DNA from: an uncultured Acidobacteriota bacterium
GTDB taxonomy: Bacteria > Acidobacteriota > Blastocatellia > RBC074
Assembly: GCA_963796275.1 (NCBI GenBank)
Contig: CAWCKY010000002.1
Location: 224,001-288,000, forward strand
Length of the DNA: 64,000 nucleotides
Direction of reading: 5' to 3'
Of this stretch, positions 25,634 to 42,971 are shown in pieces. Numbering within the stretch: the stretch's first letter is position 1; every line of letters begins with the position of its first letter. The notes beneath the pieces were generated by a model. It worked only from the letters and a program-made list of their open reading frames with translations, ran no database searches and had not been told where the DNA came from. The position numbers and the translations under genes were made by a program.

Positions 25634-26831
25634 GTACTTTGGCAACTAAGTCTTCAGATATCTTGAATTATCGGGCAAAACGTTCTGATAATGACGATTC
25701 AATTTGTTTCTCGCAGACTCGATCGAAAATTGCCAGTTGATTTTGATCTTCTTTTCGTTACGTTCTTTGATAATCGCCGAGACATCTCTCTCCAGTTGCT
25801 TAATAGTCGGGATGCGCCGGTTTAAACACTGACGCGCCACCGCCGAGAATTCACACTCGATCATGTTGAGCCAACTGGCAGACTTGGGCGTATAGTGAAA
25901 CTCGAAACGTTGCGCCAGCGCAAAGGCCTCCGCCGCCGGCAAGTTTTGATAGAAGGAACCGGCGTGGTGGGTGTTTAAATTGTCCAGCACGAGTCGAATC
26001 TTTTTGGCCTCCGGATATGCTGCTGCCAGTCTCTGAGCGAACTGCGTGAACTCTTTCTTAGTACGTTGCCAAGAGACCTGCGCGAGTCTTTGCCCGGTCA
26101 GTGGTTCGATGGCAGCTAGCACTGCACACGATCCGTTCTTCTGATAAGCGTAATGCTCTTTGCGGACTTGGCCGCTTTGCATCGCCAGCGGTTCAACCTC
26201 CTCCCCGATCAAGAAGCACGGGCGCTCGTCGAAGCAGACCACCGGGTAGTTTGGATCATAGGCCAGCGCATACAACCGGAGAATCTCCTCCATTTGCGCG
26301 AGAAACTTCGCGTCGATCTTACCAAGACACCAAGTCTTGTTGAGGTGCGGTTTCAGTTCGTTTTTTTCAGGATGTTGCCAATATGGGTCTTGGATATCTC
26401 TTCGCAATAACCCATCTCGACCACCTTATCGGCCAACAACCGCAAAGTCCAACGCACATGCCCTTCGGGCGCTTCGCTGCAGGCCAAGGCTGTGATCTTC
26501 GCTCGCAACTTGCCGTCGATCTCCGGCGGACGTCCCGACCGCGGGGCATCTTCCAGGCACTTGAGGCCTTGCTCTTTGTACTTATCACGCCAGGCCATGA
26601 CCGTCACTCGGCTGACGCCGAGGGTTTCGGCTACCGCTTCGAGTGTCTTGCCGCGATCAAGTTCGAGCAAGCCCGTGGCTCGCTTGAAAGTTTTGGCCGG
26701 TAATTTCCCCTTGGAGATCAGGGACTCCAGATAGTCCCGGTCTTTTGCTTTTAATTTGACGTGCCGTTTTTTCATTTCCCATGCTCTGGGAATGGTGATC
26801 CGCGTGTCAAATCACATAGTTGCCAAAGTAC
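25634..26831 (-). mobile_element. IS630-family insertion sequence, apparently intact
   Basis: Perfect 15-bp terminal IRs GTACTTTGGCAACTA (25634-25648) and TAGTTGCCAAAGTAC (26817-26831), flanked on both sides by TAA. Confidence 0.93.
25646..26775 (-). CDS. IS630 transposase, two ORFs joined by a -1 frameshift
   Basis: HTH ORF 26353..26775 ends LKKTN*; DDE ORF has VCFDE, LVLDNLNTH, SWLNMIECEF; slippery CTGAAAAAAACGAA near 26357-26370. Confidence 0.92.
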
Positions 26832-27196
26832 TAAGGGCTTTAAGAATAATCACTGATTCGACTTTTTAAGAAGCGCCCGGCTTCGGTTGAATGCCCCCCC
26901 TCGTGCGATGCACTCCCTCATCATTTCAGCAGACGCTCCCACTTCGACGCTTATCCTTAATTGCCGTGAAAAACGTTGGATACTACATGTCGCTCTTAAA
27001 AAGCGAAGGCTCAGGGGTTACTTCGCCTTCGGCTCTGCCCTGGGCTAGAGTCTCCCGCCCGTTTCGATGCCGATTTGTTTTGTGAAAAGCTGGTTATCTG
27101 AAGATCAATGCGTAAGATAAAGTAATTATTTCTTAATAGCTAATCGTTATAGTCTTGATTGATACCTTTGGATTAACCGCACCATCTCGTTGAGTT

Positions 27197-27229
27197 AGTT
27201 TACTACACCAAAGATAAATAGAAGATAAA
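27197..27229 (-). promoter_or_regulatory. Direct-repeat promoter copy 1 (no clear downstream gene)
   Basis: TTTATC-TTCTA-TTTATC-N10-TAAACT. Confidence 0.65.
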
Positions 27230-27245
27230 TAGAGTGTAAATAGAA

Positions 27246-27716
27246 CCCAACGATCCCACCCGAATCGTGCAGACTGGCAGCCAGCGAAGCAATGGGTTTG
27301 AAATCGGTTTGAGTGGAAGCGTCACCCGAGCCTGGAGAATTGCCGGTGGGTATGCTTATCAAGACGCCTTTGTGACTAGCGACACCGCAGCCGCAAGGGC
27401 TGGGTTGCAAGTCGGTCAGGTGCCGCATAACAACTTCTCCTTATGGAACAGCTATCAGGTCCTCCCGAGATTGGGAGCCGGCCTGGGCATCATCCATCGA
27501 TCCGAGATGTTCGCGACGATCGACAATACGGTGACGTTGCCTGGTTACACCAGGGCTGATGCTGCGGTCTTCTTCACTATCACCGAGCGATTGCGTCTTC
27601 AGGCTAACGTGGAGAACCTGACTAACAAGCGGTACTACATCAATGCGGACAGCAACACTAACATCACGCCGGGAGCTTCTCGCGGTGTGCGGGTTGGGTT
27701 GGTCGCCAGATTTTAA
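27246..27716 (+). pseudogene. C-terminal fragment of a TonB-dependent (siderophore-type) receptor
   Basis: QTGSQRSNGFEIG...LPGYTRADAA...LQANVENLTNKRYY...terminal F; no 5' part. Confidence 0.85.
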
Positions 27717-28053
27717 GACACTGCAAAGCACGCAGCGCGTAGGTAGCATCGAGGCACTCCAATGAAACTGTTACTCACGCCTGAAATATCGGTGCCATTT
27801 ACGCGCTGCTTGAAACCAGGAGCGCCAAGTAGACTTCTCGAGTTCTAATGCATGCTGTTTCTCCCATTGATATAGCAAGCAAGAAAACAAGGGGTTTGGC
27901 GGGCAATTCTGAAGGAGGGGATGTTGATTACAACGTTGACAGTCTCTTAATCGGAGCACCGAATCAAACAAATAAATAACTCTCTATTCTTAGAAAGTTT
28001 GGCGTGAGTTGATGACGGTGTTGTTATCCCAGTTGAGGCTTACCGAGCGGGGA

Positions 28054-28539
28054 TCAGAAATAACTGATCTCGTTCTTAGCTTTCGCAACTAGCTCCCATA
28101 TCTCTTCTTTCCATGCCTCAGGTTCGTTGATGTCCCAGAGAACGAATTTGATTAGGCTATCTGTGTGGATCGTGAGGTTTCCAATATTGAATAGGCGCTG
28201 TAGCCTTCCTTGTGTGACGCTGATCGATATGACTGCATTGAGTTGGATACAATCATCGAATTCGGTGATTAGTCCCCAGCGGGCCCGGGCATCGTGTTCC
28301 GTGATCGTGTAAGTCGTGCTCTTCAGCCAGAGGTGAATTCCGATGACGATGGCAAGTATAAGCAAGCCCATGATCAACCCCGAAATACCGGCATTTTTGT
28401 CGAGGTGGATTTTCAGTGGGTTGGTGATCTCAATAATTGTAGCCACAATAAACAAAGCGATGATGAAGAGTGCAAAGCCATAGTGAACGGCCATAGTCAG
28501 AGTGCTTGGCTTGAGAATTATCGACCTTGTTTCCTGCAT
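28054..28539 (-). CDS. Membrane protein with bacterial PH domain (bPH_2/YdbS-like)
   Basis: Two TM helices, then TYTITE...WGLI...ISVTQGRLQRLFNIGNLTIHT. Confidence 0.78.
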   Translation of the reverse strand: MQETRSIILKPSTLTMAVHYGFALFIIALFIVATIIEITNPLKIHLDKNAGISGLIMGLLILAIVIGIHLWLKSTTYTITEHDARARWGLITEFDDCIQLNAVISISVTQGRLQRLFNIGNLTIHTDSLIKFVLWDINEPEAWKEEIWELVAKAKNEISYF

Positions 28540-28541
28540 TT

Positions 28542-28766
28542 CTACCTCATCACGTTGGCCAAGTAGTTTTGAGCATTGTCTCCGATTCCGGCATCACCGA
28601 AGGCGATGAACCGGACTGAGTTGTCCGATGTCGGTGTTTCAGTCAGAGGGAAAAAGCCGTTGCCGGCTTGTAACCTGTTCTCAGGCGTCTTGGCTGTGAC
28701 TCCCGTTGCGACTAAGACGTTCGCCGCGACTGCTGGTAAGAGTGCTAGGAAAGCCCTGCGGTTCAT
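28542..28766 (-). pseudogene. Truncated Tat-exported metallophosphoesterase (N-terminus only)
   Basis: MNRRAFL Tat signal; VRFIAFGDAGIGDNAQ matches VRFIAFGDMGTGENNQ of the intact paralog at 34617. Confidence 0.8.
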
Positions 28767-28829
28767 TTATCCTGTCTCCAGTATCAGGTCTCCAGTGGGA
28801 AGAGGTTGTTAAGGGGGAAAGATAGACAT

Positions 28830-28862
28830 AGGCTACCAGACGGAAGATAAACAGAAGATAAA
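28830..28862 (-). promoter_or_regulatory. Direct-repeat promoter copy 2
   Basis: TTTATC-TTCTG-TTTATC-N10-TAGCCT upstream of 28766. Confidence 0.75.
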
Positions 28863-28896
28863 TAGACAAACTGCGCGGTACCAATACGCTCGTTAT

Positions 28897-31800
28897 CTAG
28901 TCGAGATTCTTCGAGAGGGACTGCTTGCGGGCAATGCCGAAACGCAGATAGAGGGCCGGCATGAGGAGCAGGTTGAGCAAGGTGGAAGTTATCAATCCAC
29001 CTAGGATGACGACCGCCAGCGGATATTCGATCTCGTGCCCTGGCTTGTTGCCGCCGATGACGATGGGCAGCAGTGCGAGTCCAGTGGCAAGCGCCGTCAT
29101 CAAAATCGGGGCCAGGCGCTCTTCAGAGCCACGTAACACCAGCTCTTTTCCGAACGGATGGCCTTCTTCGGTTTCGAGGTGGCGATAATGGCTGACCAGC
29201 ATAATGCCATTGCGCGCTGCGATGCCGAGCACTGTGACGAAGCCGACGAGCGAGCCGAGTGAAAGGACGCCGCCTGCCAACACCGTGGCCGCGACTCCGC
29301 CAATCAGAGCAAACGGCAGGCTCACGAATATCAGTAGAACCACCCGTAGCGAGCGGAAGTCAGTATGTAGCAGGAGCAGGATGCCGAGCAGCGCCAGGGC
29401 CGAGAGTGCCAGCAAACGGTTCTTCGACTCCTGACGCGCCGCGTATTCGCCTAGGATTTCGGGATGATAACCGTGATCGAACGACAGCGTCTTGACCTTG
29501 TCTTCGATTGCGCGCGCCACGCTTCCCAGGTCGCGTCCCTTGGTATCGCAGGTCACATCGATGCGGCGCGACGCTCCTTCACGCTGAATCACATTGGGAG
29601 CCGGCGCAATCTGAATATCGGCCACGTCGCCGAGCGGTGCATCGCCGCCCGCCGGTAGGCTGATCCGCAACCTGCGCAATGCCTCCAGGTCGGTGCGCGT
29701 GTGCAGCGCGCCCCATACGACCACATCGTTTATTTGCTGTGCCTGGTATAACTCGCCGACCTTCGCTCCCTTGATGAGCGTCGTGGCAGCGCGGCGCACA
29801 TCGCCCGGCGTCAAGCCGAACCGCGATGCGGCGTCGGGTCGTAACCGGACTTCGATCTGCGGCACCGAGACCTGCTGCTCGACTTTAAGATTGGTCACTC
29901 CCGGTATCTCGCTAATCTCTTTGCTGACTTCGGACGCTTTAGACCGCAACCCTTCCAAATCGGGACCGTAAATTCTTACAACAATTGAGGCGCCCGCGCC
30001 GGTCAGCACCTCCTTGATGCGTTCTTTCAAATAAGTCAGCAGATCGCGCACAAGCCCCGGGTAGCCGTCCACAACTTCCTGAATCTTTGCCACCGTCGGC
30101 TCATAAGGGGCGTCGGGGTCGATGCTTATCCAGAGTTCGGTGAAGTTCGGGCCGACCACTTCGTCAGCGACTTCGGCGCGGCCGATGTGGGAGCCGAAAT
30201 TGCGCACGCCTGGGATGGCGCGCAGTTCCTTGCTCGCGCGTATGGTGATGCGGTTCATCGCCTCAAGCGACGTGCCGGGTTTTTCGACCCAATGCATCAG
30301 GAAGTCGGTCTCTTTGAAGTTCGGCAGGAACTCTTCGCCGAGAAACGGGACAGTCGCCGCCGTCAGGCCGAACAAGACGAGCATCGACGCGACGGCCGTC
30401 CTGTGTTTGTTGACGAACGCGAACAACAGGCGGCCGTAGTGGCGTTTGAGGAAGCGCGTGAGCGCGGGCTCAGGGCGCTCGCGGTTCGCCGCGCTCGGCA
30501 GCAGCAACAATGACATCGCCGGGGTGAGGGTCAGGGCGACGCCCAACGAAGCCAGGACGGCCAGCACGTACGATATGGCCAGGGGGCGGAAGAACGAACC
30601 CGACAAACCATCGAGGAAGAAGATCGGTAGGAAGACCAGGACTACGATCAGCGTGGCGAAGACGATGGCGCTCCGTACTTCGAGCGAGGCTTTGAGTACG
30701 ACCGAGAAGGCGGATTCAGGAGCGCCGGCTTCGCGGTTGAGCTTCAGCCGTCGCATGATGTTCTCGACGTCTATGATGGCATCGTCGACCACTTCGCCGA
30801 GCGCGATCACCAGCCCTGCGATCACCATCGTGTTGATAGAATAGCCGCGCCAGTAAAGTACCAGCGCCGCCGCGAGCAGCGAGAGCGGGATTGCCGACAG
30901 ACTGATGATCGCCGCCCTCCACTCGAAGAGGAACGCGACCAGCACTGCGATCACCAGCAGACAGCCGATGAACAGGGCGGTCCGCAGATTCTTCAGTGCC
31001 AGTTCGATGAAGGTCGCGGGGCGGAAGATGGTTGAATCGATCTCGACGTCCCTGAGGGCGGGTTTGAGCGCGCTGAGCGCGGCCTCGACCTCGCGCGTCA
31101 CGTCGAGCGTGTTGCCCTCCGGCTGCTTCTCGATGATCAGAAGGATGCCCGGTCCGTCGTTGATGATCGCGTCTCCGATGGGCGGCGGGAAGCCTTCGAC
31201 CACCTCGGCGACGGTGCTCAGTTGCAGCGGCGCGCCGTTGCGAAAGGCGACGGGGACGCGCGCCAGATCAAGGGGCCGCGTGATAGCGGCCATGTGCGCT
31301 ACAGGCAGGCGCTGATTGGGCGTGTCCACGAAGCCGCCCGCTACCACGGCGACGGCGTCGCGCGTAGAACGTTCGACATCTGCGAGCGTGACGTTGTGCG
31401 CGCGCAGGCGGTCGGGATCGACCAAAACCTGCAACTGGCGGTCGCGCTGTCCCCAGATCGCCACGTTCGCCACCCCGGGGACCGCCATCAGGCGCGGGCG
31501 AATGGTCCAGCGCGCCAGTGCGGAGAGGTCCATCTGCGAGAGATTCTTTGATGACATGCCGATCTTCAGGACGCGGCTGGTGGACGAAAGCGGCTGCAAA
31601 ATCACCGGGGGTCGAGCCGCTGCGGGCAGTTGCGTTGCAATCAGCGACAACCTCTCCTGTACACGCTGCCGCGCAGGCATCAAATCTGTATTCTGCTGGA
31701 AGATCAAAACGACCGACGAAAGGCCGAGTACGGACTTCGAGCGAAGCGTCTTAAGTTCCGCCGTGCCATTCAACGCGTTTTCGATTGGTACAGTGATTAG

Positions 31801-31986
31801 GCTTTCGACCTCGGTCGTGGAGAGGCCGGGAGCCTCGGTCTGAATTTCGACCAGCGGCGGAGCGAATTCCGGGAAGACGTCGAGCGGCGCTGTGCGCACT
31901 ACGCGCAATCCTGCGATCATCAGCAGTATTGCGATGGCGATGACAATGACGCGCAGTTGCAAAGAGGTTGAGACGAGCCAATTCAT
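28897..31986 (-). CDS. CusA/CzcA-family (heavy-metal efflux type) RND transporter
   Basis: [43 protein letters not shown]; 1029 aa. Confidence 0.93.
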
Positions 31987-31992
31987 TCAGAA

Positions 31993-33219
31993 TTATTTCC
32001 CTGTGCCGAACTCGGTGCCGAAGATTTCGGCGGCGCCGGCAGTGACGATGTTTGCTCCGACGGCGGGACCGCGCGCGAGCACAGCCAGCGAGCCGGTGAC
32101 GCGGCGCACTTCCACGCGGCGGCGAACATACTGCTGCGGCCCGATATTTTCGTAAACCCAGGTGCCACCGTGGATGTCGTGTAAGACTGCTGACCATGGC
32201 ACGACCAGGCTTTCTTCAGTCGCTTTTTCTGAAAGCGTCACTCCCATCTTCTGGCCGGGGCGTAGGGAGCCGTCCTGATTGGCCAATTCGAAGTACAGGT
32301 CGGCCGTGTCGTTCAGAGGATTGGCAGTGGGCGGAGCGTTGATGGGGCGAGCGGAGCGTGTTGCGGTGCCTGGCGCCTCATTCAGCGCATGAACTCGCGC
32401 AGTTTGACGGCGGTCAATCAAACTTAAGTCGCCGACGTACACCGGCACCCGAATCCAAACAGTGGCGAGGTTGACCACTTCGAAGAGGGCCCCGCCGCTG
32501 GGAACGGTCTGGCCCGGGCTAACCAAGACTCTCTGAATCAGGCCATCCTGCGGAGCTGTAATGGTGAATGCGGCATCACCAGAGACAGGCGCGTTGACAT
32601 AACGGTCAAGCCGCTCGCGCGCCGCCTTCAGATCGTTTTCGGCGAGGCTAAGTTCTTCGCGCGCCTGTTCAACGGCTTTCTCGCTGCCAGCGCGGTCATG
32701 CAAAAGTCGTTCGGCGCGCTTGAAGCGAGCGCCTGCGGCGTCAACCCGCGTCTGTGTATTGGTCACGTCGCGTTCCAATTGCACGCGTAGGTCGCGTTCG
32801 GGCGGAAGCAGGGGGGTTAGGCGAAAGAGCGCCTGCCCCTTGCTCACAAACAGCCCAACTACGAGCGGAGCATAGGCCGCGAGAGTGCCGCTCACCGGAG
32901 CCGCGACGCTGATGGCGCGATCGGGCGGGAGTACTATTTCACCGGCAAAAGTCCGAGTCTGGGCAACGGTTTTAACCGCGACAGGCGCGGTGGCGATTCC
33001 CAGGCGCTCTTCGGCCTTCGGAGAAAGTTTGACCCTCGCCAGTTCGGACTCTTTGACAGGGCTCTCGACTTTTGCTGCCGGTTCTGCCATCTGACTCCCT
33101 GCGGCCTGTGGCTTTGAACAGCTGCACAACGAGATCGATGAGACGGCGATGATGAAAAGCAGCAGCCCGATCATCGCTCCTGAGAATGGCGGGCGCACAA
33201 TCAGTTTAGCGGTTGGCAA
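31993..33219 (-). CDS. RND periplasmic adaptor (membrane fusion protein)
   Basis: ISVAAPVSG, ITAPQDG, LRPGQK, LVVPWSAV motifs. Confidence 0.92.
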   Translation of the reverse strand: MPTAKLIVRPPFSGAMIGLLLFIIAVSSISLCSCSKPQAAGSQMAEPAAKVESPVKESELARVKLSPKAEERLGIATAPVAVKTVAQTRTFAGEIVLPPDRAISVAAPVSGTLAAYAPLVVGLFVSKGQALFRLTPLLPPERDLRVQLERDVTNTQTRVDAAGARFKRAERLLHDRAGSEKAVEQAREELSLAENDLKAARERLDRYVNAPVSGDAAFTITAPQDGLIQRVLVSPGQTVPSGGALFEVVNLATVWIRVPVYVGDLSLIDRRQTARVHALNEAPGTATRSARPINAPPTANPLNDTADLYFELANQDGSLRPGQKMGVTLSEKATEESLVVPWSAVLHDIHGGTWVYENIGPQQYVRRRVEVRRVTGSLAVLARGPAVGANIVTAGAAEIFGTEFGTGK

Positions 33220-34630
33220 TCAGCCTCCTTCCGACGCTCCGTTCGAGTTGCGCTAATGCACGCGCGGTAGCGACCTGGTAATCAGCTTCGCGCAATCGTT
33301 CATCGGAGTAGCGGCGCGCGGTTTCGAGCACGAACAGGTAGGACACATCGCCCGAGCGGTAGGCCGTCTCGGCCAGGCGAATGTTCTGTTCCAGCGGCAG
33401 CAGCACGCGCGTCCGCCACAGTTGATGCGTTGCGCGCGCCTGCGTAAGTTGCAGATAAGCCTCGCGTACTCCCGATACGACTCGTTGCCGGGTGGCGATC
33501 AGTTGTTTGGCGGCGCGTTCGATCTCCGCCTCTGCCCGCGAGATGTTGCCCTGATTCCGGTTGAAGATCGGCAGATCGATCAGCAGGCCCGGCCCTTGCT
33601 CGAAGCCATTGGCGCCTCGCCCGTACTCCTTGGCGATGGCCGTGACATTGATGATACGCGAACGCTCCCACCTGGCGCGCGCTCCGGCTGCTTCGATGGC
33701 AAGCTCCCCGGCCTTCACCTCCGGCGCGGCCTCGAGCGCCTGTTTGATCAGTTCGTTGAGCGATTCTGATTCCGCTGCGGTATTTGAAGCAGTGGAAGGT
33801 GCGGCGATCCGCACAGTCGTCGCGCGCACACTGATGATCTGGCTGGCCGCCGGGGCATGCCGCGACGGCGCGGCGATGATATTCACTCTTACGTCGTCAT
33901 TGCCGAAGCCTAACAACGCGCGCAAATGCTCGCCGGCGAGCGCCGAATCTTGTATGAATCGCGCCTCCTGCTCTTCCGCCTGGCGCGCATCGATGACGGC
34001 GGCGTTGGTTTCCAATTCGCTGATGTCGCCCGCTCGCAGCCGGGCATTAACGATGACGGCTATTTCCCGGCGCTCGCGCGCGATCTCCCTGACGATGCCG
34101 GCGCGCGTGTTCGCCGCCGAATAGTCGGCGTAAGCTATACGAACATCGCGTACCAGATCGAGCGCGCGCCCCACCAGTGTTGCGCCGACACGCTCCTCTT
34201 CCAGTTTGGCCGCCGCTACGCGCCGAGGCCGCTGCCAGATAGTCTCAATCGGCCAGCTGGCGACTGCTTCCAGGATCCGAAAACTGAAGGGAAAGATCAT
34301 CGTCAGTTGCGGGTTGGCGAGCAGACCAGCCTGAATCACGTCGGCGCGCGCCAGCCCCAACGCCGTCATCTCGGCTTGCAACGACGGGTTGTTCCACAGC
34401 GCAATCGCGACGGCCTCGTCTTCCGTCACTCCGTCATCGAGAGAGACGCCTTCGGGCATCGCCAATGGTGTCGTCCCCGGATGCAGTGGATGGCCGGTCC
34501 TGCGTTCAACTTCTTTTGACACGCCGGCAGGCTGAGTCTTGGTTTGCGCCCAACCGCTCGTGATTGCTGCGGCGGGCAGGAGGAAGCTGGTGATGACGAT
34601 TAAAAAGGCTCTTGCCCTAATAGCCAGCAT
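33206..34630 (-). CDS. TolC/CzcC-like outer membrane factor
   Basis: ALWNNPSLQA, LPIFNRNQGNI, AYRSGDVSYL, LERSVG. Confidence 0.92.
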   Translation of the reverse strand: MLAIRARAFLIVITSFLLPAAAITSGWAQTKTQPAGVSKEVERRTGHPLHPGTTPLAMPEGVSLDDGVTEDEAVAIALWNNPSLQAEMTALGLARADVIQAGLLANPQLTMIFPFSFRILEAVASWPIETIWQRPRRVAAAKLEEERVGATLVGRALDLVRDVRIAYADYSAANTRAGIVREIARERREIAVIVNARLRAGDISELETNAAVIDARQAEEQEARFIQDSALAGEHLRALLGFGNDDVRVNIIAAPSRHAPAASQIISVRATTVRIAAPSTASNTAAESESLNELIKQALEAAPEVKAGELAIEAAGARARWERSRIINVTAIAKEYGRGANGFEQGPGLLIDLPIFNRNQGNISRAEAEIERAAKQLIATRQRVVSGVREAYLQLTQARATHQLWRTRVLLPLEQNIRLAETAYRSGDVSYLFVLETARRYSDERLREADYQVATARALAQLERSVGRRLIANR

Positions 34631-35585
34631 GAACGGTCTCCCTGGATGAAAGTTGGTTCATCCCTTGAGACAATGTAGCCGCGCGATTCCTTGTCAATAC
34701 GCCGCTGTCAATGACATTGCCCGCGGCATCTATCGTGGAGAAGGATATCTTGTCGGGCATAGCCTCAAAATAGATGAAACTGTTGACTGCGTCGTTGCCG
34801 GCGGCGAAGAAGGGGGTGCGCCGGTCCAGATCACCCTTTCGCAATTGGCCGCCCGTTCCGGAAGTGAAGTATTGCACGCCACGCCGCGGCTTGGTTCGCT
34901 CGTAAACGTGATCGTGTCCGGACAAGGCTGCCGTCACGCCGTATTTTACAAACAATGGCTCGAGCTGCGCACGCAGCTTCAGATCTGATCCATGGGGAAT
35001 GCCGGAGGAATAGATCGGATGGTGAAAGTAGGCGATCTTCCACCGCGCCTTCGAAGCCGCCAGCGCACCATCCAGCCAGCGTGCCTGCGGCGAGTCGAAT
35101 TTGGTCGAATCGAGCGCGAAGAATTCAATCAGCCCATCCCCCTTCACAAACGAGTAATAGGCCTTACCGTTCATGTTGAAGTTCGGGTAGTTGATCTCCG
35201 CTTCTCGCCCCCGCCTCACGTCGTGATTTCCGAGCACGGCGTAAAAATGCACGCCGCGGTTCAGCAATTCGGCGTAAGGCCGCTCGAACCTGTCCTTGAT
35301 GAGAGCTGGATTGCCGTCCGGGTAGATGTTATCGCCGAGCATCAAGGCGAAATCAAACGGATGTTTGCTATGGAAGTCAGCCATCTCGGCAGCGAGCGAG
35401 TATTGGTTGTTTTCGCCGGTCCCCATATCGCCGAATGCGATGAACCGCACCATCCCAACGGGGCCTGTGTCGGACGGATTGGGAGTTTCCTTCAACTGTT
35501 GGGCTCTGCTGCTAAACGAAGCCGCGGCGGCGATGATAACAGCGAGCACAAAGATCAAGAACAAAGCCAGCCATCTGCGTGTCAC
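34617..35585 (-). CDS. Exported calcineurin-like metallophosphoesterase (purple-acid-phosphatase-type motifs)
   Basis: GDMG, GDNIY, GNHD, FHHP, GHDH; probable GTG start at 35585 (MTRRWLAL, twin-Arg-like); 3' end overlaps the TolC-like gene. Confidence 0.9.
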   Translation of the reverse strand: MTRRWLALFLIFVLAVIIAAAASFSSRAQQLKETPNPSDTGPVGMVRFIAFGDMGTGENNQYSLAAEMADFHSKHPFDFALMLGDNIYPDGNPALIKDRFERPYAELLNRGVHFYAVLGNHDVRRGREAEINYPNFNMNGKAYYSFVKGDGLIEFFALDSTKFDSPQARWLDGALAASKARWKIAYFHHPIYSSGIPHGSDLKLRAQLEPLFVKYGVTAALSGHDHVYERTKPRRGVQYFTSGTGGQLRKGDLDRRTPFFAAGNDAVNSFIYFEAMPDKISFSTIDAAGNVIDSGVLTRNRAATLSQGMNQLSSRETVHAGY

Positions 35586-35678
35586 TACTCTCTTTACCTC
35601 ATTGTACCTGGTTGCCTTTTGTTTTTTTTGGCGAATCGGAGCGGCCACCAATCGGCCGACGAAATACGCCAATGATTC

Positions 35679-35711
35679 ATTGTAACGAAGAGCGGATAAA
35701 CAGGGGATAAA
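35679..35711 (-). promoter_or_regulatory. Direct-repeat promoter copy 3 (phosphatase-RND operon)
   Basis: TTTATC-CCCTG-TTTATC-N10-TACAAT. Confidence 0.78.
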
Positions 35712-35748
35712 TGGGGCAGGAAAAGAGATTTCGCGTGCGCTCCGTCAC

Positions 35749-37182
35749 TCAACCGGCCTGATTCGCAGGTAGAGTGACGCGGAATTGGCTACCGGTATGG
35801 TCAGAATAATGTAAGATCAACGATCCGCCGTGCGCCTCGGCAACCCAGCGTGCGATGGAGAGCCCCAATCCAGCGCCACTGCCGCTATTCCCATTCGCCG
35901 CACGAAACCGGGCTTTATCGGCTCGATAGAAACGCTCGAAGATATGCGGCTGTGCTTCGGCGGGGATACCTGTTCCGGTGTCAGACACGACGACATAATA
36001 GATTGAGTCCGTTTGTCCGAGTTGAAGCACGACCTGCCCGCCGGCGGGCGTATGTTTGATGGCATTATCGAGGAGGTTGAGCAGCATCTGGCGCAGCAGC
36101 GCCTCATCGCCGCGATACGGAGCCTCAACTGCCTCCTCAAACTCGACCGAGACAAGTTTACGCACGGCTAGCACGCCTACGGCGCGCGCAGTTTCGGCAA
36201 CCAGTTCATCCAGATAGAAATCATGCAGCTCCAGCCTGCGCTGCCCGGAATCGGCGCGCGCCAGGGTGAAGAGGTCATCTACGATCTTGTTCAAGCGGCG
36301 GCTCTGTTCGTTGATGATCGCCAGCGTTTCGTGGTATTCGCCCACTTCGCGCCGCGGGCTCTCCATTATCACTTCCGTCGCGGTGTGAATGATGTGGAGC
36401 GGCGTTCGCAGTTCGTGCGAAGCGTCCGCCACAAATTGCCGCTGCTTAGAGAATGATTCCTGCAGGCGAGCCAGCAACTCATTGAATGTCGCGGCCAACT
36501 GACCCAGTTCGTCGCGCGAATTGGTGATTGGCAGACGTTGTTCCAACCTTTCGGCGCTGATGCGCCGCGCGCTGTTTGCCATCTCCATAACCGGCGCCAG
36601 ACTTTTACGGGCCAAAAACGATCCGCCGATCCAGGCCAGCAGCATTGCCGCCGGCACCGCCATCAGAAAAATGACGCGCAAACCGGCCAGGTCTTGTGAC
36701 ACCGCTGCGAGACTTTGGCTGACTACAATTAAATAGCCTTTGTTTTCGCGCTGATACCTCACGCGCCGCGTGGCGACTCGCAATTCTTCTTCCTTACCAT
36801 AGATTCTGCCGATGGTGTGCAAAAATCGAATTTCGTCATCGGTAGGGAAAAGTCGCTCATCCGGCAGATCGGCCTGAAGGTCATTCGACAATACCTTCTC
36901 TTCCAGCAGACGCCCTTGCGCATCGAAGATTGCTGCCGCCTGGTCGGGAAAGTAATGCTCATTTAGAGCGCTGTGTATAGCTTGCGTTTCGCTCTCGCCC
37001 TCATCCAGCTCATAGACCAGGAGTCGCGATATCCCTTCCACGGTTGTTTGCACGCCGGCGTCCAATCGACGGTGAAGCTGGTTCGCCGCCAGCAGGTATA
37101 CGCCAACGCTGAACACGATCAACACGAATGCCAGTGTCCCTGTGTGCCACAGCGTCAATCTAGTTCGCACCGAATCCAGCAT
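35749..37182 (-). CDS. Membrane sensor histidine kinase (2TM-HAMP-HisKA-HATPase, CusS/QseC-like)
   Basis: FVADASHELRTP, NLLDNAIKH, DTGTGI, IFERFYR, GAGLGL. Confidence 0.95.
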   Translation of the reverse strand: MLDSVRTRLTLWHTGTLAFVLIVFSVGVYLLAANQLHRRLDAGVQTTVEGISRLLVYELDEGESETQAIHSALNEHYFPDQAAAIFDAQGRLLEEKVLSNDLQADLPDERLFPTDDEIRFLHTIGRIYGKEEELRVATRRVRYQRENKGYLIVVSQSLAAVSQDLAGLRVIFLMAVPAAMLLAWIGGSFLARKSLAPVMEMANSARRISAERLEQRLPITNSRDELGQLAATFNELLARLQESFSKQRQFVADASHELRTPLHIIHTATEVIMESPRREVGEYHETLAIINEQSRRLNKIVDDLFTLARADSGQRRLELHDFYLDELVAETARAVGVLAVRKLVSVEFEEAVEAPYRGDEALLRQMLLNLLDNAIKHTPAGGQVVLQLGQTDSIYYVVVSDTGTGIPAEAQPHIFERFYRADKARFRAANGNSGSGAGLGLSIARWVAEAHGGSLILHYSDHTGSQFRVTLPANQAG

Positions 37183-37186
37183 AGAA

Positions 37187-37882
37187 TCAGGTTGGAAGTT
37201 GGTCGTTTCCCGCCGCCAGCAGATAGCCCTCGCCGCGTAGCGTGCGAATCAGTTTCGGCTCTCGCCCTTCGTCAATCTTGCGTCGCAACCGTTGAATGTA
37301 AACCTCAATCAGGTTCGAAAACGGATCGAAGTTCTCGTCCCAGACGTGTTCGGCGATCTCCGAACGGGAGACAATCTGACCGGCGCGCCTCGCCAGGTAT
37401 TCCAACAAAGCATACTCTTTGGCAGTCAACGCGATCGGTTGACCCGCGCGCTGAACTGCGTGTGAACGAGTATTGATTTTCAGGTCGCCGGCTTCAATTG
37501 TCTCCGGCTGCAAGGACTGGCTCCGCCGCAACAGCGCCCGCACGCGCGCCAGAAGTTCGTGAAAATCGAAGGGCTTGATCAGGTAATCGTCCGCGCCGGA
37601 ATCTAATCCGGTGATGCGATCGCGCACATCATCTAAAGCCGTCAGCATCAGCACAGGTACGCTCGTCCCCCCGGCGCGAATTTCGCGGCAAACCTCAAAA
37701 CCATCTTTCAATGGAAGCATTACGTCGAGGATGATCAGGTCATAGTTGTTGATGCTCGACAGATAAACAGCTTCTTCACCTTCAGCCGCGATATCGACAG
37801 CGAAAGACCGCTCGCGCAACCCTTTCGCCAGCACACGCGCCGCATCAAGTTCGTCTTCAGCCAGCAAAACACGCATCTTCAT
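37187..37882 (-). CDS. OmpR-family response regulator
   Basis: REC (LLAEDE, LDVMLP, KPF) plus winged helix (NLIEVYIQRLRRKID, TLRGEGY). Confidence 0.95.
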   Translation of the reverse strand: MKMRVLLAEDELDAARVLAKGLRERSFAVDIAAEGEEAVYLSSINNYDLIILDVMLPLKDGFEVCREIRAGGTSVPVLMLTALDDVRDRITGLDSGADDYLIKPFDFHELLARVRALLRRSQSLQPETIEAGDLKINTRSHAVQRAGQPIALTAKEYALLEYLARRAGQIVSRSEIAEHVWDENFDPFSNLIEVYIQRLRRKIDEGREPKLIRTLRGEGYLLAAGNDQLPT

Positions 37883-37941
37883 CCCTTTACATCAGAATCC
37901 TGGCTACTTCAGAGACAATCTCAGAGTGCCGTCCAGCAACT

Positions 37942-37974
37942 ATCATATTATGCGCCAGATAAATACATGATAAA
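37942..37974 (-). promoter_or_regulatory. Direct-repeat promoter copy 4 (autoregulatory position, upstream of the regulator)
   Basis: TTTATC-ATGTA-TTTATC-N10-TATGAT. Confidence 0.78.
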
Positions 37975-38199
37975 CCCGGCGATCTGGCCGCTACCACTTG
38001 TAATTGTCCGTAGTTTGGCTCTGGCATCTGGCGCATTGGATCAGGCAGTTGTAATATTGAAGCGACATTGGAAGACTTCATAAGTGATAGCGGCCACTCA
38101 TTTGCGGTAAGCTCGACCTCGCCGATCACGAACATCCAATGCCGCACAATATGGGCGGCTTTCTTTTTGCGACAGGTTCACTTAGGTCACCCCGCCACT

Positions 38200-38755
38200 G
38201 CTCGCACATGCGTCTGTAACTCATTAATTCTCACAAGGCTGAGATAGGCGCAATCCAATTGGATCGCAGGTGAGTGGTAACCATAGGGTCGACAGAGATA
38301 GCATCAGACGCATCCGACGTATCGCATGCGACGCGCGCTGATTGCCGCATTCGCCGAAGAACTTGTCCGCGCGCTCAGGCGACTGTCCCGAACGATTCCT
38401 CCACATCAAGATCGCGGCTCATGTGTTGCGCGCCTTCCAGGGACACTTCTCTGCGCCTCAATCACATGCGGTTGATGTTGATCTGCACCTATGGCACACC
38501 GACCTACGGCTCGATCAGCAAGTCCACGCGCCGGAGACGGTCACCATTGCGTCGCGTATTTCGTTCGCTTTGTGCGCAACGCGGCCAGGTCGGGACCGAA
38601 GAGCTTGATCGCGATCTGTACGCGCGTGCCGGAGAGCAGGTGGTCAGTGCGGTGCGAGATCGGTTGGTCGACCTTCAGGCCCACGCCCTGGATTGTGGCG
38701 AGCCTCTGCCTCAAGTCTTCCAGCACTTCGGTGTGCTTGCGACCGCCCTCTTTCG
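38200..38755 (-). pseudogene. Degenerate internal fragment of a second CusA/CzcA-type RND gene
   Basis: [14 protein letters not shown]...[31 protein letters not shown], followed by stops and frameshifts; lower boundary approximate. Confidence 0.72.
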
Positions 38756-38756
38756 T

Positions 38757-39779
38757 TCAGAAACCATAAACCCTACGCCTCGCGCGAGCAGCCAGCCCGA
38801 CCATACTCCGCGCCAACGGACCAGGTATGGCCGCCAACAAACGAAGGGGCAACGGCCCGCTTCCCGCCAGCCGCAATTCTTCTCGGGCTTCCATCCGCTT
38901 CCCTTTGCGAATCAAACAGCGGGCCCTCGTCAGATACTCGTCCTTCAGCGCCGCTTGATAGCGCTCCTTGTGCTGGGCGAGAAATTGCGCGTCGGCCCCG
39001 AACGTTCGCTGAAGCATCGTGATGCGGCACGTCGCCCTGTGCAACGCATCGCAATGTGAGAGTCGATGCCCTTCATGGTCACACTGCCAGACAGTTTCGC
39101 AGTCGAAGTAAGCCGCCTTGCCGATCCTCGCCAGACGCGTGAAACACTCGTGATCATCGTAAACACTGATGTCTTCGCTGAAATGGAGCGCGTCCCCGGC
39201 CTGCTCACGCCGCACAACCGCGGTCTGTGACGACACATAATTTTCCCTTAGCATTGTTTCGTACAGACTGCCGATATGGACGTTGAAGTCCGCCCGGCCC
39301 GGCGGCAGGGAGGCAAGGGACGAATAAGCTACGGGCGGGCCGAGGATATCATCCCAACTCCGCGGGTCGCGATGCCAGCCAAACAAGCCGTTGTATGTTT
39401 CGGTCCCGTCCATGTCCCTCAGGCCGAGATCGCTGAAACAGAACAAGACATCCGGTCGCGCCCGCATAAAAGCTCGCTGCAAGACTAGCTTGTCGGCGAA
39501 CCATTCGTCGTCAGAATCATTAAACGCCACGAGCGGGTTGCGGGCTTCAGCGATGCCGCGGTTGCGCGCCGCGCCGACGCCGCGGTGTGATCCGAGCACA
39601 TAGCGGATCCGATCGCGATATGACTCGAGCGCCTGCTTGGTGTTATCAGTGGATCCATCATCCACGACGATGACCTCGTCTCCGGGAGACATCATCGCCA
39701 GAACGGATCGCAACGACCGGCCAATGTGTTTGGCCCGATTATAAGTGGGGATAATTACGCTGACCGATAATTCATTCAT
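38757..39779 (-). CDS. Glycosyltransferase family 2
   Basis: VSVIIPTYNR, IVVDDGSTD, ARNRGI, AFNDSDD. Confidence 0.92.
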   Translation of the reverse strand: MNELSVSVIIPTYNRAKHIGRSLRSVLAMMSPGDEVIVVDDGSTDNTKQALESYRDRIRYVLGSHRGVGAARNRGIAEARNPLVAFNDSDDEWFADKLVLQRAFMRARPDVLFCFSDLGLRDMDGTETYNGLFGWHRDPRSWDDILGPPVAYSSLASLPPGRADFNVHIGSLYETMLRENYVSSQTAVVRREQAGDALHFSEDISVYDDHECFTRLARIGKAAYFDCETVWQCDHEGHRLSHCDALHRATCRITMLQRTFGADAQFLAQHKERYQAALKDEYLTRARCLIRKGKRMEAREELRLAGSGPLPLRLLAAIPGPLARSMVGLAARARRRVYGF

Positions 39780-39937
39780 CTAAACCTCAAAGGATACTCC
39801 ATCCATAGCGAGCATCTGGGCGAGCTTGGATGGAGAGGAATTTTGAGACCCCGCGACTTAGGGTAAATCACTTCAAGTATAGAATGACATGTAGTATCAT
39901 TCGTTCCGTGAAATTGACATGTGCTAGACCCTGACCT

Positions 39938-41113
39938 TCATATTGCTCCCTTCTCACTCGCGAATAATTCGTTGCGTAGCGGGCGCAGACGGAACTTGTA
40001 GGTGTGGAGCGCCCATCCGATAAAGCTGCGGGCAAAGATGTAGCAGAATGCGTGCGGGCGCGCTGCCGTCGCCCATTCGAGCTTCCAATCCATTTGCGGC
40101 ATTAAGAAGTCAAATTCCTTCGCCCCCTGCGCCAGAAGTTCGCGCAAGACTTCGGAAGTGATGACATGGCCGGGCGCTCCATGACTAAACTGTTCGTCGT
40201 AGGCGGGTTTGAGGAGAAAATATCGCCCGTCGTAAGTCAGACCGTAGTGCATCGCTACGGTGCGGTCGCCGATATCCAGCCGGTAAAGCGAGAGATAGCC
40301 AAATCGCGTCGCTGACCGCGCGACCTCATCGTAAAACTTCCGCGTCTCGGCGGCGCATGCGATGGCCGTTCCTTCCTTGCCTTTCCAACCGGCGCGTTCG
40401 AGCTGGTAGAAACGCTCCAACTCCGTCGGATCGGCCTCCGTCGTGCTGGTAAGCCGCAGGTCGCCTTCTTCTTCCAGCTTACGTTGGCGGCGGCGCACCG
40501 AATAGCGGAACTTCGAGGTGGTGTGCTTGAGGGCCGCCTCCAGCGTCGTGACCTGTCCGGGTAGCGCGATGTAGGGGCCGGGCGACATCTTCCACTGTCC
40601 AGTCAAATGGCCGTCCGAGCTTGCAAGACTGAGCAGGCTTTCGCTCGCCCCGCCCTCCGGCACTAACCTTAACTCGATCAGGTCCCAGCCGCGCCTCTCT
40701 CTCAACAATTGCCAGACGGCCCGCACCGCCGTCGGAACGTCCTGACCCGCGCCATGAGCCAGATCGAAGCGACACGAGTGCACGTTCGTCGGACTGCGCA
40801 ACATTCTGACCGGCAAGCCGTGAAAGAGCGCCCGCCCCTCGATGAGCGGCAGCAATGCGCGTAAACGTCCATTCACACGTGCCGTAACGATCAAAAGTCT
40901 CTTTTGCGGCGCAAAGGCGCGCATATAAGATTCGATCCACTCCGGGCGGAAGAATGGCTGATCGCAAGGCCCTTCGGCACATAACTCGCGCCACTCGTCA
41001 GCAAACCGCTCGATGATTTCGACGCCGCCTGAGAACGCCTCCGCCACAATCTTCGCCTCGGCTACGGTTTTCAAATTCACGATTGAAGAACTGTCCAAGC
41101 TACTGGTTAACAT
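39938..41113 (-). CDS. GNAT-family acyltransferase, CelD/BcsL type
   Basis: PFFRPEWI, LERAGWKG, KPAYDEQF..GAPG, FDFL....WKLEW; start set at MLTSS after AAGGA. Confidence 0.85.
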   Translation of the reverse strand: MLTSSLDSSSIVNLKTVAEAKIVAEAFSGGVEIIERFADEWRELCAEGPCDQPFFRPEWIESYMRAFAPQKRLLIVTARVNGRLRALLPLIEGRALFHGLPVRMLRSPTNVHSCRFDLAHGAGQDVPTAVRAVWQLLRERRGWDLIELRLVPEGGASESLLSLASSDGHLTGQWKMSPGPYIALPGQVTTLEAALKHTTSKFRYSVRRRQRKLEEEGDLRLTSTTEADPTELERFYQLERAGWKGKEGTAIACAAETRKFYDEVARSATRFGYLSLYRLDIGDRTVAMHYGLTYDGRYFLLKPAYDEQFSHGAPGHVITSEVLRELLAQGAKEFDFLMPQMDWKLEWATAARPHAFCYIFARSFIGWALHTYKFRLRPLRNELFASEKGAI

Positions 41114-41199
41114 GCGCCATATCCTTATGTGAAAACTTGATTGCGGAGAATGCCGTCTGAGTTCGAAGCTCAAGTAATGCGCCAAATCGAGTTAATAAC

Positions 41200-41339
41200 G
41201 AACGCCTGGCGCACGAGAGTTTTCTGGCTGGATACTCTTCCGCACGTCCGGCGAGTTTCCGCAGAATGTTGTAAAAGCGAATCTTGCCGCCTGTATCTAC
41301 CAGAACCAGTTTGCGCATTTTGACCCACAGGATTTTCAT
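41200..41339 (-). pseudogene. N-terminal remnant of a family 4 glycosyltransferase
   Basis: MKILWVK...VDTGGKIRFYNILRKLA; lower boundary approximate. Confidence 0.6.
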
Positions 41340-41497
41340 TGCCTTTTCCCTGAACTCCCGCTGAACGAAAACTCTTGAATTGCCGCGCTCGCGGCGTCCG
41401 GCGCCTCGCCGTCGAAGAAGCGCCGCTGCCAGGTTTCAAAATTGACGAGCATCCACAATCGCTCCGCGTGGCGCTCGCCCGCCGCGTGGCGCGCCGC
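41336..41497 (-). pseudogene. C-terminal remnant of an asparagine synthase (AsnB-like) gene
   Basis: HAAGERHAERLWMLVNFETWQRRFFD; stop overlaps the GT4 remnant ATG. Confidence 0.65.
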
Positions 41498-41499
41498 GA

Positions 41500-42146
41500 G
41501 CACGAGCACGTAAGCCATCGTCGCCACTATCGCCGCCGCGCCCGCCGTCGCTTCGGAAACCGAGAGCGAGCGCTGACGCAACGACACGAGAGCGGTGGCA
41601 CCTCACCTCGCGCGGGACGAGGGCCGCTGCGACGAGCAGCGCAACCAACAGACCGGCAACCGCTGGTCTGGCGATGGCCTCGACGTCAGCCGCCACGCGC
41701 GAATACGAGAGCGCCTGGACGTACTGTTCATTGCCAACGACTTGGGGGATCCTGGCTTCGAAGGTTGGCGTGAAGAAAGCCGTTACCGCGTTGATGGCGA
41801 AATCAGCGCGTAAATCTACCAGACGGCGGTGATGAACGGAAAGAGCATGAGCAGGCCGAAGCGCACGGGGTCGGCGGCGATCAGAATCTTTTTGCGGCTG
41901 AGGCGGTCCGCAATCACGCCCGCCGGTTGCGAGAATAGAATGAAGGCGAGGATGCGCAGCATCAGAGCGTTGCCGATGACTGCGGTCGCCGACGCCCCGC
42001 CTGAGCTGATAGGTGAAGAGCGCCAGACCAACTATCGTCACGCCGCTGCCGAGCAACGAGACGATCTGCGCGCCGAACAACAACTTGAAATCGCGATTGC
42101 GCCAAAGCGATAAAGGCGCGATGGGATGCTGTGGTATTTCGTTCAT
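41500..42146 (-). pseudogene. Frameshifted NreB-like MFS transporter remnant
   Basis: LWRNRDFKLLFGAQIVSLLG...GVIADRLSRKKIL...AFFTPTFEARIP...YVQALSYSR spread over shifted frames. Confidence 0.72.
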
Positions 42147-42178
42147 CAGTTGACAGTGAGTCAATAACGTTAGTCTTT

Positions 42179-42238
42179 AGTCCCGCCTTCAGGAGGAAGG
42201 ACTTGAAATTCCAGATACTTCCTCCTGAAAGCGGGACT
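42179..42238. repeat. REP-like inverted repeat
   Basis: AGTCCCGCCTTCAGGAGGAAG ... CTTCCTCCTGAAAGCGGGACT. Confidence 0.75.
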
Positions 42239-42456
42239 GCAAACCACTCTCGGCTATGCCGTTATCCATTGGTTATTTCTGCTCCGGCTTTGTGCCGGGG
42301 GGGATTCGCAATCTCGCCGAGATTCACGGCGGGGCGATTTCGCTTGAGAAATCGCTGTAGGGGGGAGCGCGCGCAACTCACGCTGCCTGCTTAGGGCGTG
42401 GTGTAGTGGCAAAAATGAGCGAAATCAAAACCGCACTTACGGAGAAAACTTCCGGT

Positions 42457-42971
42457 TCGGCGCCAGTAGCGCCGCGTGCTGTTTCTAATCTCCAAAACCG
42501 GCGCCAGGCTTTTTACGGGCCAAAAACGATCCGCCGAACCAGGCCAGGAGCAAGGCCGCAGGCACTGCCGCCAGAAACCGCGGCGCAAGCCGGCCAGATC
42601 TTGTGAGACAGCTGCGTGACGCTGGCTGAATACACCATATAGCTTTTGTTTTCCCGTGTAAACGTCACGCGTGGCGACTCGCAATTCTTCTCGACAGATA
42701 AACAGCTTCTTCACCTTCAGCCGAGATATCGACCGCGAAAGACCGCTCACGCAACTCTTTCGCCAGCACGCGCGCCGCATCAAGTTCGTCTTCAGCCAGC
42801 AAAACACGCATTCTCAGGCCCTAACATCAGAGTCCATCGTTAACCTGGCTACCTCAGAGACAATTTCAGAGTAGCCTGTTCAGCTTCCATTATACTATGC
42901 GTCAGATAAATACAGGATAAACCGATGATCTGCCTGCTACTAGTGCTTTGTCGTGACCCGGCTCTGACATC
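42457..42971 (-). pseudogene. Decayed duplicate of the response regulator/kinase locus with an internal deletion
   Basis: 42691-42971 aligns to 37756-38028; 42457-42690 aligns to about 36551-36789. Confidence 0.88.
42889..42921 (-). promoter_or_regulatory. Direct-repeat promoter copy 5
   Basis: TTTATC-CTGTA-TTTATC-N10-TATAAT. Confidence 0.75.

Follow-up and report, generated by a model that had tools for sequence, protein, structure and literature searches.

The 64-kb stretch of DNA analysed here, hereafter the window, spans positions 224001-288000 of contig C2 in the Blastocatellia assembly G000 (9,456,497 bases in 7 contigs, 53-55% G+C). Its minus strand carries the genes of a two-component regulator-kinase pair and of a phosphatase and resistance-nodulation-division (RND) efflux operon, and five copies of a promoter-like 33-nt unit lie among and beside them. 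This unit, in the window and in related genomes, is our subject; it looks like a real and fairly ordinary local gene switch. Transcriptional control is barely known in the Blastocatellia, abundant soil Acidobacteriota that are represented mostly by bins from metagenomes. The cluster comprises the following genes and gene remnants:

37187-37882, minus strand: response regulator, 231 aa, with receiver (Pfam Response_reg) and winged-helix (Trans_reg_C) domains; presumed to bind the repeats
35749-37182, minus strand: sensor histidine kinase, 477 aa, with HAMP, HisKA and HATPase_c domains
34617-35672, minus strand: secreted metallophosphatase of the purple-acid-phosphatase type (Pfam Metallophos; purple acid phosphatases in PDB at E = 2e-21)
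33206-34630, minus strand: outer-membrane efflux protein (OEP, TolC-like), by family search
31993-33219, minus strand: periplasmic adaptor (membrane fusion protein, MFP), by family search
28897-31986, minus strand: RND transporter, 1029 aa (Pfam ACR_tran)
28542-28766, minus strand: 74-aa stub of a second purple-acid-type phosphatase, decayed, with a signal peptide resembling those of twin-arginine translocation (Tat) and the first metal-binding motif
28054-28539, minus strand: bPH_2 (bacterial PH domain) membrane protein, 161 aa, intact, by family search
42391-42811, minus strand: decayed copy that runs from ~43 initial regulator codons straight into frameshifted pieces of the kinase, across an internal deletion of ~1.1 kb

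Regulator and kinase look functional, with receiver, winged-helix, HAMP, HisKA and HATPase domains all present. Heavy-metal families score highest for the regulator, the kinase and the pump, and by profile score all three fall just short of the curated NCBIfam models: the regulator reaches 262.5 bits against cztR_silR_copR (cutoff 279.2), the kinase 275.9 bits against cztS_silS_copS (cutoff 292.55) and the RND transporter 606.7 bits against CusA/CzcA (cutoff 701.45). Among solved structures the regulator is nearest to DrrD (1kgs, 210.6 bits), with KdpE structures at 111-112 bits. The metallophosphatase probably starts at a GTG at 35594, giving a signal-peptide-like N-terminus. The stub is 50% identical to this intact phosphatase over 38 aa, and a full-length homologue of the stub with a Tat signal is found in a relative (L059 7565-8512).

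A first-pass annotation of the window had reported five minus-strand copies of TTTATC-N5-TTTATC, each followed after 10 nt by a TAnnnT hexamer. A pattern search confirmed all five; the positions reported for them (27197, 28830, 35679, 37942 and 42889) are the low ends of the hexamers. Numbered by position, the sites are:

37942-37974, minus strand: site 4, GTTTATC-N4-ATTTATC, 10 nt, TATGAT; ~60 nt before the regulator ATG; putative promoter of the regulator-kinase operon
35679-35711, minus strand: site 3, ATTTATC-N4-GTTTATC, 10 nt, TACAAT; 38 nt past the kinase stop; putative promoter of the phosphatase-OEP-MFP-RND operon
28830-28862, minus strand: site 2, ATTTATC-N4-GTTTATC, 10 nt, TAGCCT; 35 nt past the RND stop; before the 74-aa phosphatase stub and the bPH_2 gene
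27197-27229, minus strand: site 1, ATTTATC-N4-ATTTATC, 10 nt, TAAACT; orphan, with no gene downstream
42889-42921, minus strand: site 5, GTTTATC-N4-ATTTATC, 10 nt, TATAAT; paralogous to site 4; before the decayed regulator/kinase remnant

Two of the earlier gene assignments need correction: the 'second phosphatase' proved to be the 74-aa stub, and site 1 is left without a gene.

The whole unit reads RTTTATC-N4-RTTTATC, 10 nt, TAnnnT, that is, two 7-nt half-sites in direct repeat followed by the hexamer. The RTTTATC repeat with its 11-bp period, about one turn of the helix, is present at all five sites and at those of relatives, and the spacer to the hexamer is exactly 10 nt in 5/5 copies. The repeat alone, TTTATCNNNNNTTTATC (TTTATC-N5-TTTATC), matches five times in the window and on the minus strand only (27213-27229, 28846-28862, 35695-35711, 37958-37974 and 42905-42921), against an expected count of 0.00 (mean of 100 dinucleotide-preserving shuffles). 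A genome-wide motif scan confirmed that the element is rare: the 17-mer has 11 matches in 9.46 Mb, five of them inside one 16-kb stretch, and none of the other six is followed by TAnnnT at +10. Two of the 11 come from a short tandem array of TTTATCTTAC-like units at G000:C3:478560-478620.

With up to one mismatch allowed, the composite of repeat, spacer and hexamer has six matches in the genome, the five window sites and one at G000:C2:207968-208000 on the plus strand (L134 1501-1533), ~16 kb left of the window. This extra site reads TTTATG...TTTATC, TAGATT and lies between the gene of a KdpE-like regulator and that of a 219-aa multihaem cytochrome c, which is followed by a Tat-signal protein; we take the latter two, from our own reading of the genes, to resemble an operon of the alternative-complex-III type. 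We considered it as a true member and rejected it. It is a probable chance match, because the conserved purine is missing from its second repeat and nothing else supports this lone one-mismatch match.

A promoter with canonical -35 and -10 elements in register was called at none of the five sites. The repeats neither cover nor adjoin a -35-like hexamer, and the sites would therefore be weak promoters without an activator. The same observation bears on the opposite sign of control, in which the repeats are operators and the adjacent regulator represses by occluding RNA polymerase at the -35 region. The repeat does overlap the -35 position and proteins of the OmpR family can repress, but promoters with no -35 element would be weak unless activated, the geometry equals that of an activating architecture (PhoP architecture I, as set out in the accessible part of PMC3335776), and a rigid 10-nt spacing is expected for productive contact with polymerase and needless for occlusion. 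We consider repression improbable.

The fixed distance to a -10-like hexamer would also suit a promoter of an alternative sigma factor, with TTTATC as its -35-like element. Yet half-sites repeated directly in tandem every 11 bp are the mark of a winged-helix dimer rather than of a sigma -35 element, TAnnnT is the housekeeping type of -10, and no sigma factor gene turned up among the cluster genes that we read. We give this explanation almost no weight.

The five sites differ in their histories. Sites 4 and 5 are nearly identical from ~85 nt upstream, through the 5' leader, to about codon 43 of the regulator, and by this shared sequence they are paralogous duplicates; the common ancestry suggested in the first-pass annotation thus stands. 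Sites 1, 2 and 3 have nothing in common beyond the motif. Might the five copies be a mere duplicated promoter cassette in a rearranging region, with no regulatory meaning? Copies 4 and 5 are clear duplicates, the region holds an insertion sequence (IS), gene stubs and remnants, and sites 2 and 3, both before sequences of purple-acid-type phosphatases, may be old duplicates as well. Against this stand the likeness of sites 1, 2 and 3 in the motif only and, in many other genera, the presence of the element at orthologous positions within unrelated flanks, with reversed and spacing controls essentially empty. A cassette without function is therefore a very improbable account of the copies.

These comparisons are pattern searches, for the family in 81 genomes; the genomes are mutually related, and the sites were selected by pattern. 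Many genera of the family have orthologues of the kinase, at 51-79% identity, and the public records for orthologues are from Acidobacteriota, mostly metagenome bins of Blastocatellia or Pyrinomonadaceae. The exact composite has 35 matches in 22/81 family genomes, and its reversed control has none. With a spacer of 9 nt there are no matches in the 81 genomes and with 11 nt there are two, which represent one locus in two genomes of one genus. The 10-nt spacing from repeat to hexamer is rigid across the 81 genomes.

The element also holds its place next to the regulator-kinase genes. Among 14 orthologue loci (L002-L015), a site was present in 10 with up to one mismatch and in 13 with up to two, the remaining locus being a 3.1-kb contig (L014). 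These sites are always directly upstream of the regulator or directly past the kinase, the positions of sites 4 and 3 in the window, and their flanks have diverged. We then compared 80 loci from metagenome-assembled genomes in public collections. With up to one mismatch, a site was found at 18 of the 41 orthologue loci (L051-L091) versus none of the 39 loci with a non-orthologous kinase (L092-L130); with up to two mismatches, the counts were 33/41 versus 2/39. A few sites among the public loci are oriented away from the regulator and suggest that the operons there are divergent. At the level of genomes (G001-G024), the exact composite occurs in 9 of the 14 that have a kinase orthologue of at least 50% identity versus 1 of the 10 that do not, the exception being G005. 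One genome (G020) has three kinase paralogues and three sites on one contig.

We aligned 50 sites (alignment A1), of which 45 rows are distinct, as L056-L060 duplicate L041, L031, L005, L033 and L004. A purine precedes each repeat in 50/50 rows, in columns outside the search pattern. A pyrimidine follows each repeat in most rows, and the outer flanks are unconserved. In the consensus, G is frequent two bases ahead of the -10 hexamer: ATTTATCTTnnGTTTATCTnnCnTnnGnTAnnnT.

The genes downstream of the element fall into recurring classes, namely regulator-kinase, OEP/adaptor/RND efflux, secreted phosphatases and PepSY-like proteins. At the 30 sites fetched from the exact-composite scan of the family, the first downstream gene was as follows:

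Regulator, then kinase: 10/30 sites
Truncated kinase: 1/30 sites
Secreted Cys-phosphatase of ~210 aa, nearest solved relative TpbA: 4/30 sites
Purple-acid-type phosphatase, the window stub included: 4/30 sites
Outer-membrane efflux protein: 4/30 sites
PepSY or PepSY-like protein: 3/30 sites
TonB-receptor-like barrel: 1/30 sites
No gene, or contig end: 3/30 sites

Longer loci contain the same parts in varied order. Three of them (L051, L052 and L055) read phosphatase, PepSY-like, OEP, adaptor, RND, another (L059) has both phosphatase types within one locus, and in L081 each of two PepSY genes has its own site. In L056 (4477-7458) a TpbA-like Cys-phosphatase is placed between regulator and kinase, and the element precedes the phosphatase, not the regulator. 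In the same-genus genome G001 (L064), two imperfect sites are followed by a gene for a PAP2 phosphatase, which raised the possibility that a third type of phosphatase belongs to the conserved cargo. Of the other loci with PAP2 homologues, 0/4 (61 family genomes) had a site within 1.5 kb at up to two mismatches, and G000 has no homologue at E <= 1e-30; the candidate was rejected.

We read the 33-nt unit as an activator-dependent promoter of the sigma-70 type that lacks a -35 element and would be bound by the adjacent CusR/CzcR-like regulator of the OmpR family, and we put the probability of this reading at about three in four. The two half-sites would occupy the place of the -35 element. A phosphorylated dimer of the regulator (37187-37882) would bind them head to tail and bring RNA polymerase to the -10 hexamer, in the manner of the class II activators PhoP and PhoB, with transcription from presumptive start sites. 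The pho box has the same placement relative to the -10. The regulator would raise its own operon through site 4 and the adjoining downstream phosphatase-OEP-MFP-RND efflux operon through site 3. The regulon would be strictly local in G000: site 2 would drive only the phosphatase stub and the bPH_2 gene, and sites 1 and 5 would be promoters orphaned by duplication, deletion and an IS insertion. A module that was duplicated and decayed would fit this state, with two operons intact, one unit half decayed and two promoters orphaned. The first-pass annotation had likewise proposed an OmpR-family site in place of the -35 element, the adjacent regulator as its activator, autoregulation and a small local regulon, and the rarity, rigid spacing and conserved position of the element support these proposals at the level of sequence. 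In kind, such a switch would be textbook two-component biology, with autoregulation and control of a neighbouring operon.

Several observations weigh against this reading. The regulator is named as the binder from adjacency, its autoregulatory position and co-occurrence, all of them features of sequence. The sequencing runs listed for 34600-38100 of the window were soil DNA runs in which this DNA has a small share, with no RNA run among them. In the window, only two of the five sites (3 and 4) precede intact operons. Across the family, the exact composite is absent from 59/81 genomes, and 8 of the 41 public orthologue loci have no site even at two mismatches. Conversely, an exact site occurs in G005 (L026), a genome that is 92% complete and whose best kinase match has just 36% identity. 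The counts across genomes overstate independence because the genomes are related, and the pattern columns of A1 are invariant by construction because the sites were picked by pattern. An unpublished genome (G004) supplies one of the 35 matches and one of the 14 orthologue loci. Finally, G000 encodes a KdpE-like regulator on C2 at ~206.6 kb (best NCBIfam model KdpE, 221.5 bits, cutoff 325).

This last protein is one candidate if another OmpR-family regulator binds the element and the adjacent one is a bystander. In the sections of PMC3264566 at hand, the KdpE box of kdpFABC consists of the half-sites TTTATA and TTTACA, 5 nt apart; these match TTTATC at 5/6 and 4/6 positions (differences of one or two bases per half-site) and have the same period, which makes this box at least as close to the element as the PhoP box. 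Moreover, the genome's sole extra one-mismatch site lies ~680 nt downstream of the KdpE-like gene. However, across genomes the element accompanies orthologues of this regulator-kinase pair and is found ahead of the regulator gene itself, and its TTTA core is set apart from KdpE half-sites by the conserved purine in front of it and the TC that follows. Unlike in the KdpDE/kdp system, there are no kdp genes among the window genes read, nor among the genes identified downstream of relatives' sites, and the KdpE-like gene stands separately, elsewhere in the genome. Such a binder seems about as improbable as repression, or marginally more so.

With the adjacent regulator as the binder, three further systems offer a comparison. 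The first-pass annotation had likened the repeats to the enterobacterial PhoP box. According to the portion of PMC3335776 available, PhoP architecture I consists of (T/G)GTTTA-5 nt-(T/G)GTTTA, placed in direct orientation at ~12 nt from the -10, and acts by class II activation. As in the boxes of phoP and mgtA of Salmonella and E. coli described there, two direct-repeat hexamers stand 5 nt apart and are oriented toward the -10, they overlap the -35 position, the element, if its half-sites are taken as xRTTTA, stops 12 nt short of the -10, and the targets, putative in our case, include the operon of the regulator itself (PMC3335776, same portion). The likeness thus holds as architecture. It does not extend to the regulator, which by its score of 141.8 bits against the NCBIfam PhoP model NF008078 (cutoff 336; 22nd of 25 families listed) is not a PhoP orthologue, and for that reason the element would lie outside the PhoP regulon. 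The half-site RTTTATC differs from the PhoP box by an extra conserved TC and a varying first position; the targets here are efflux and other phosphatase families, and the hosts are Acidobacteriota. The analogy once drawn to the acid phosphatase PhoN is one of function alone, as the phosphatases of this cluster come from different families.

The closest families for the regulator, the kinase and the RND pump point to CusRS/cusCFBA of E. coli. The CusR box has a different, palindrome-like sequence. In both systems an RND efflux operon adjoins the two-component genes, and the targets, here putative, are confined essentially to one local region: for CusR, the excerpted text of two reports (bioRxiv 10.1101/2020.08.17.251918; PMC10920338) gives a single peak genome-wide. 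The arrangement is not the same, as the operons here are co-directional with a promoter copy each, whereas cus has one shared divergent region, and here phosphatases and PepSY-like proteins belong to the unit.

The third comparison concerns the sensor. In an alignment of 18 orthologous sensor domains (A3), E58 of the periplasmic loop is nearly invariant (>=90%), and by eye an acidic residue follows three positions later in most rows (E58-x-x-E/D); no conserved His, Met or Cys column was listed for the loop among these 18 domains. This recalls the periplasmic ExxE with which ColS senses Fe(III) or Zn and which has been implicated in PmrB too, as far as the consulted part of PMC4074579 goes, and it may serve as a lead. 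The ColRS and PmrAB regulons remodel the envelope. The kinase here shows no orthology to ColS or PmrB, and its motif is short and at a different place in the loop. The signal of the kinase may be an excess of hard metal cations or a related envelope stress; we regard this as possible, though somewhat short of an even chance. The link of RND efflux to secreted phosphatases and PepSY-like proteins is a starting point for finding the signal.

A bolder proposal is that the element serves, throughout the Blastocatellia, as the cis-code of a module that defends the envelope in response to cations. Two kinds of secreted phosphatase with unrelated folds (purple-acid type and TpbA-like Cys-phosphatase) would be deliberately co-induced with PepSY-like periplasmic proteins and the RND exporter, possibly so as to release phosphate and to immobilise toxic hard cations in soil, Fe(III) or Al(III) for example, or to pump them out, with sensing through the periplasmic ExxE/D of the kinase. 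We think this unlikely as a whole. What appears to be new is the sequence of the box, its rigid architecture and the recurrent phosphatase/PepSY-like cargo beside an RND pump, the class II mechanism itself being known already. Literature searches, which did not extend to supplements and are no proof of absence, found no description of this box, its architecture or the phosphatase/PepSY-like/RND cargo. As a compact code with rigid geometry and a clear candidate regulator, the element could be used to read regulon membership from metagenome-assembled genomes.

Some observations on individual loci complete the picture of the relatives. In L056, a gene for a Ser/Thr-kinase-like protein with TPR-like repeats (domain names from our own reading) ends just before the regulator. 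The three sites of L081 carry a variant first half-site, GTTAATC, and a 643-aa P-type ATPase (2906-4837) is encoded there directly upstream of a distant orthologous regulator-kinase pair. In G001, an exact promoter copy precedes a truncated kinase paralogue of 354 aa without a catalytic domain (L064 2591-3825, on G001:C667), a parallel to the decayed copy behind site 5 of the window. The promoter core of site 1 has a near-identical match in the same genome (L064 907-939).

Downstream of the orphan site 1, the window consists of AT-rich DNA, a short dispersed repeat and the following element:

25637-26833, minus strand: insertion sequence bounded by 12-nt terminal inverted repeats, with two overlapping transposase open reading frames of 140 aa and 253 aa; we take it to be of the IS630 type from our reading of the protein rather than from a search of families

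We considered and rejected a small RNA expressed from site 1: the 201 nt downstream fold no better than shuffled sequence (z = -0.93), terminator prediction found no terminator downstream of the site, and the stretch is not conserved in 25 relatives and consists in part of the dispersed repeat. The insertion sequence lies ~360 nt downstream of site 1. The dispersed repeat is an ~85-nt element (window ~27021-27109) with eight further copies of 77-97% identity on contigs C1, C2, C4, C6 and C7; it was found in 0/25 relatives and may be a miniature mobile element or a repeat of the repetitive extragenic palindromic (REP) kind. Adjoining site 1, at 27267-27716 on the plus strand, is a truncated gene that retains only the C-terminal 149 aa of a TonB-dependent receptor. 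Downstream of the decayed copy at site 5, the minus strand between 38757 and 42164 holds weak MFS_3 fragments that look frameshifted, a GNAT protein (Acetyltransf_6) and a glycosyltransferase of family 2.

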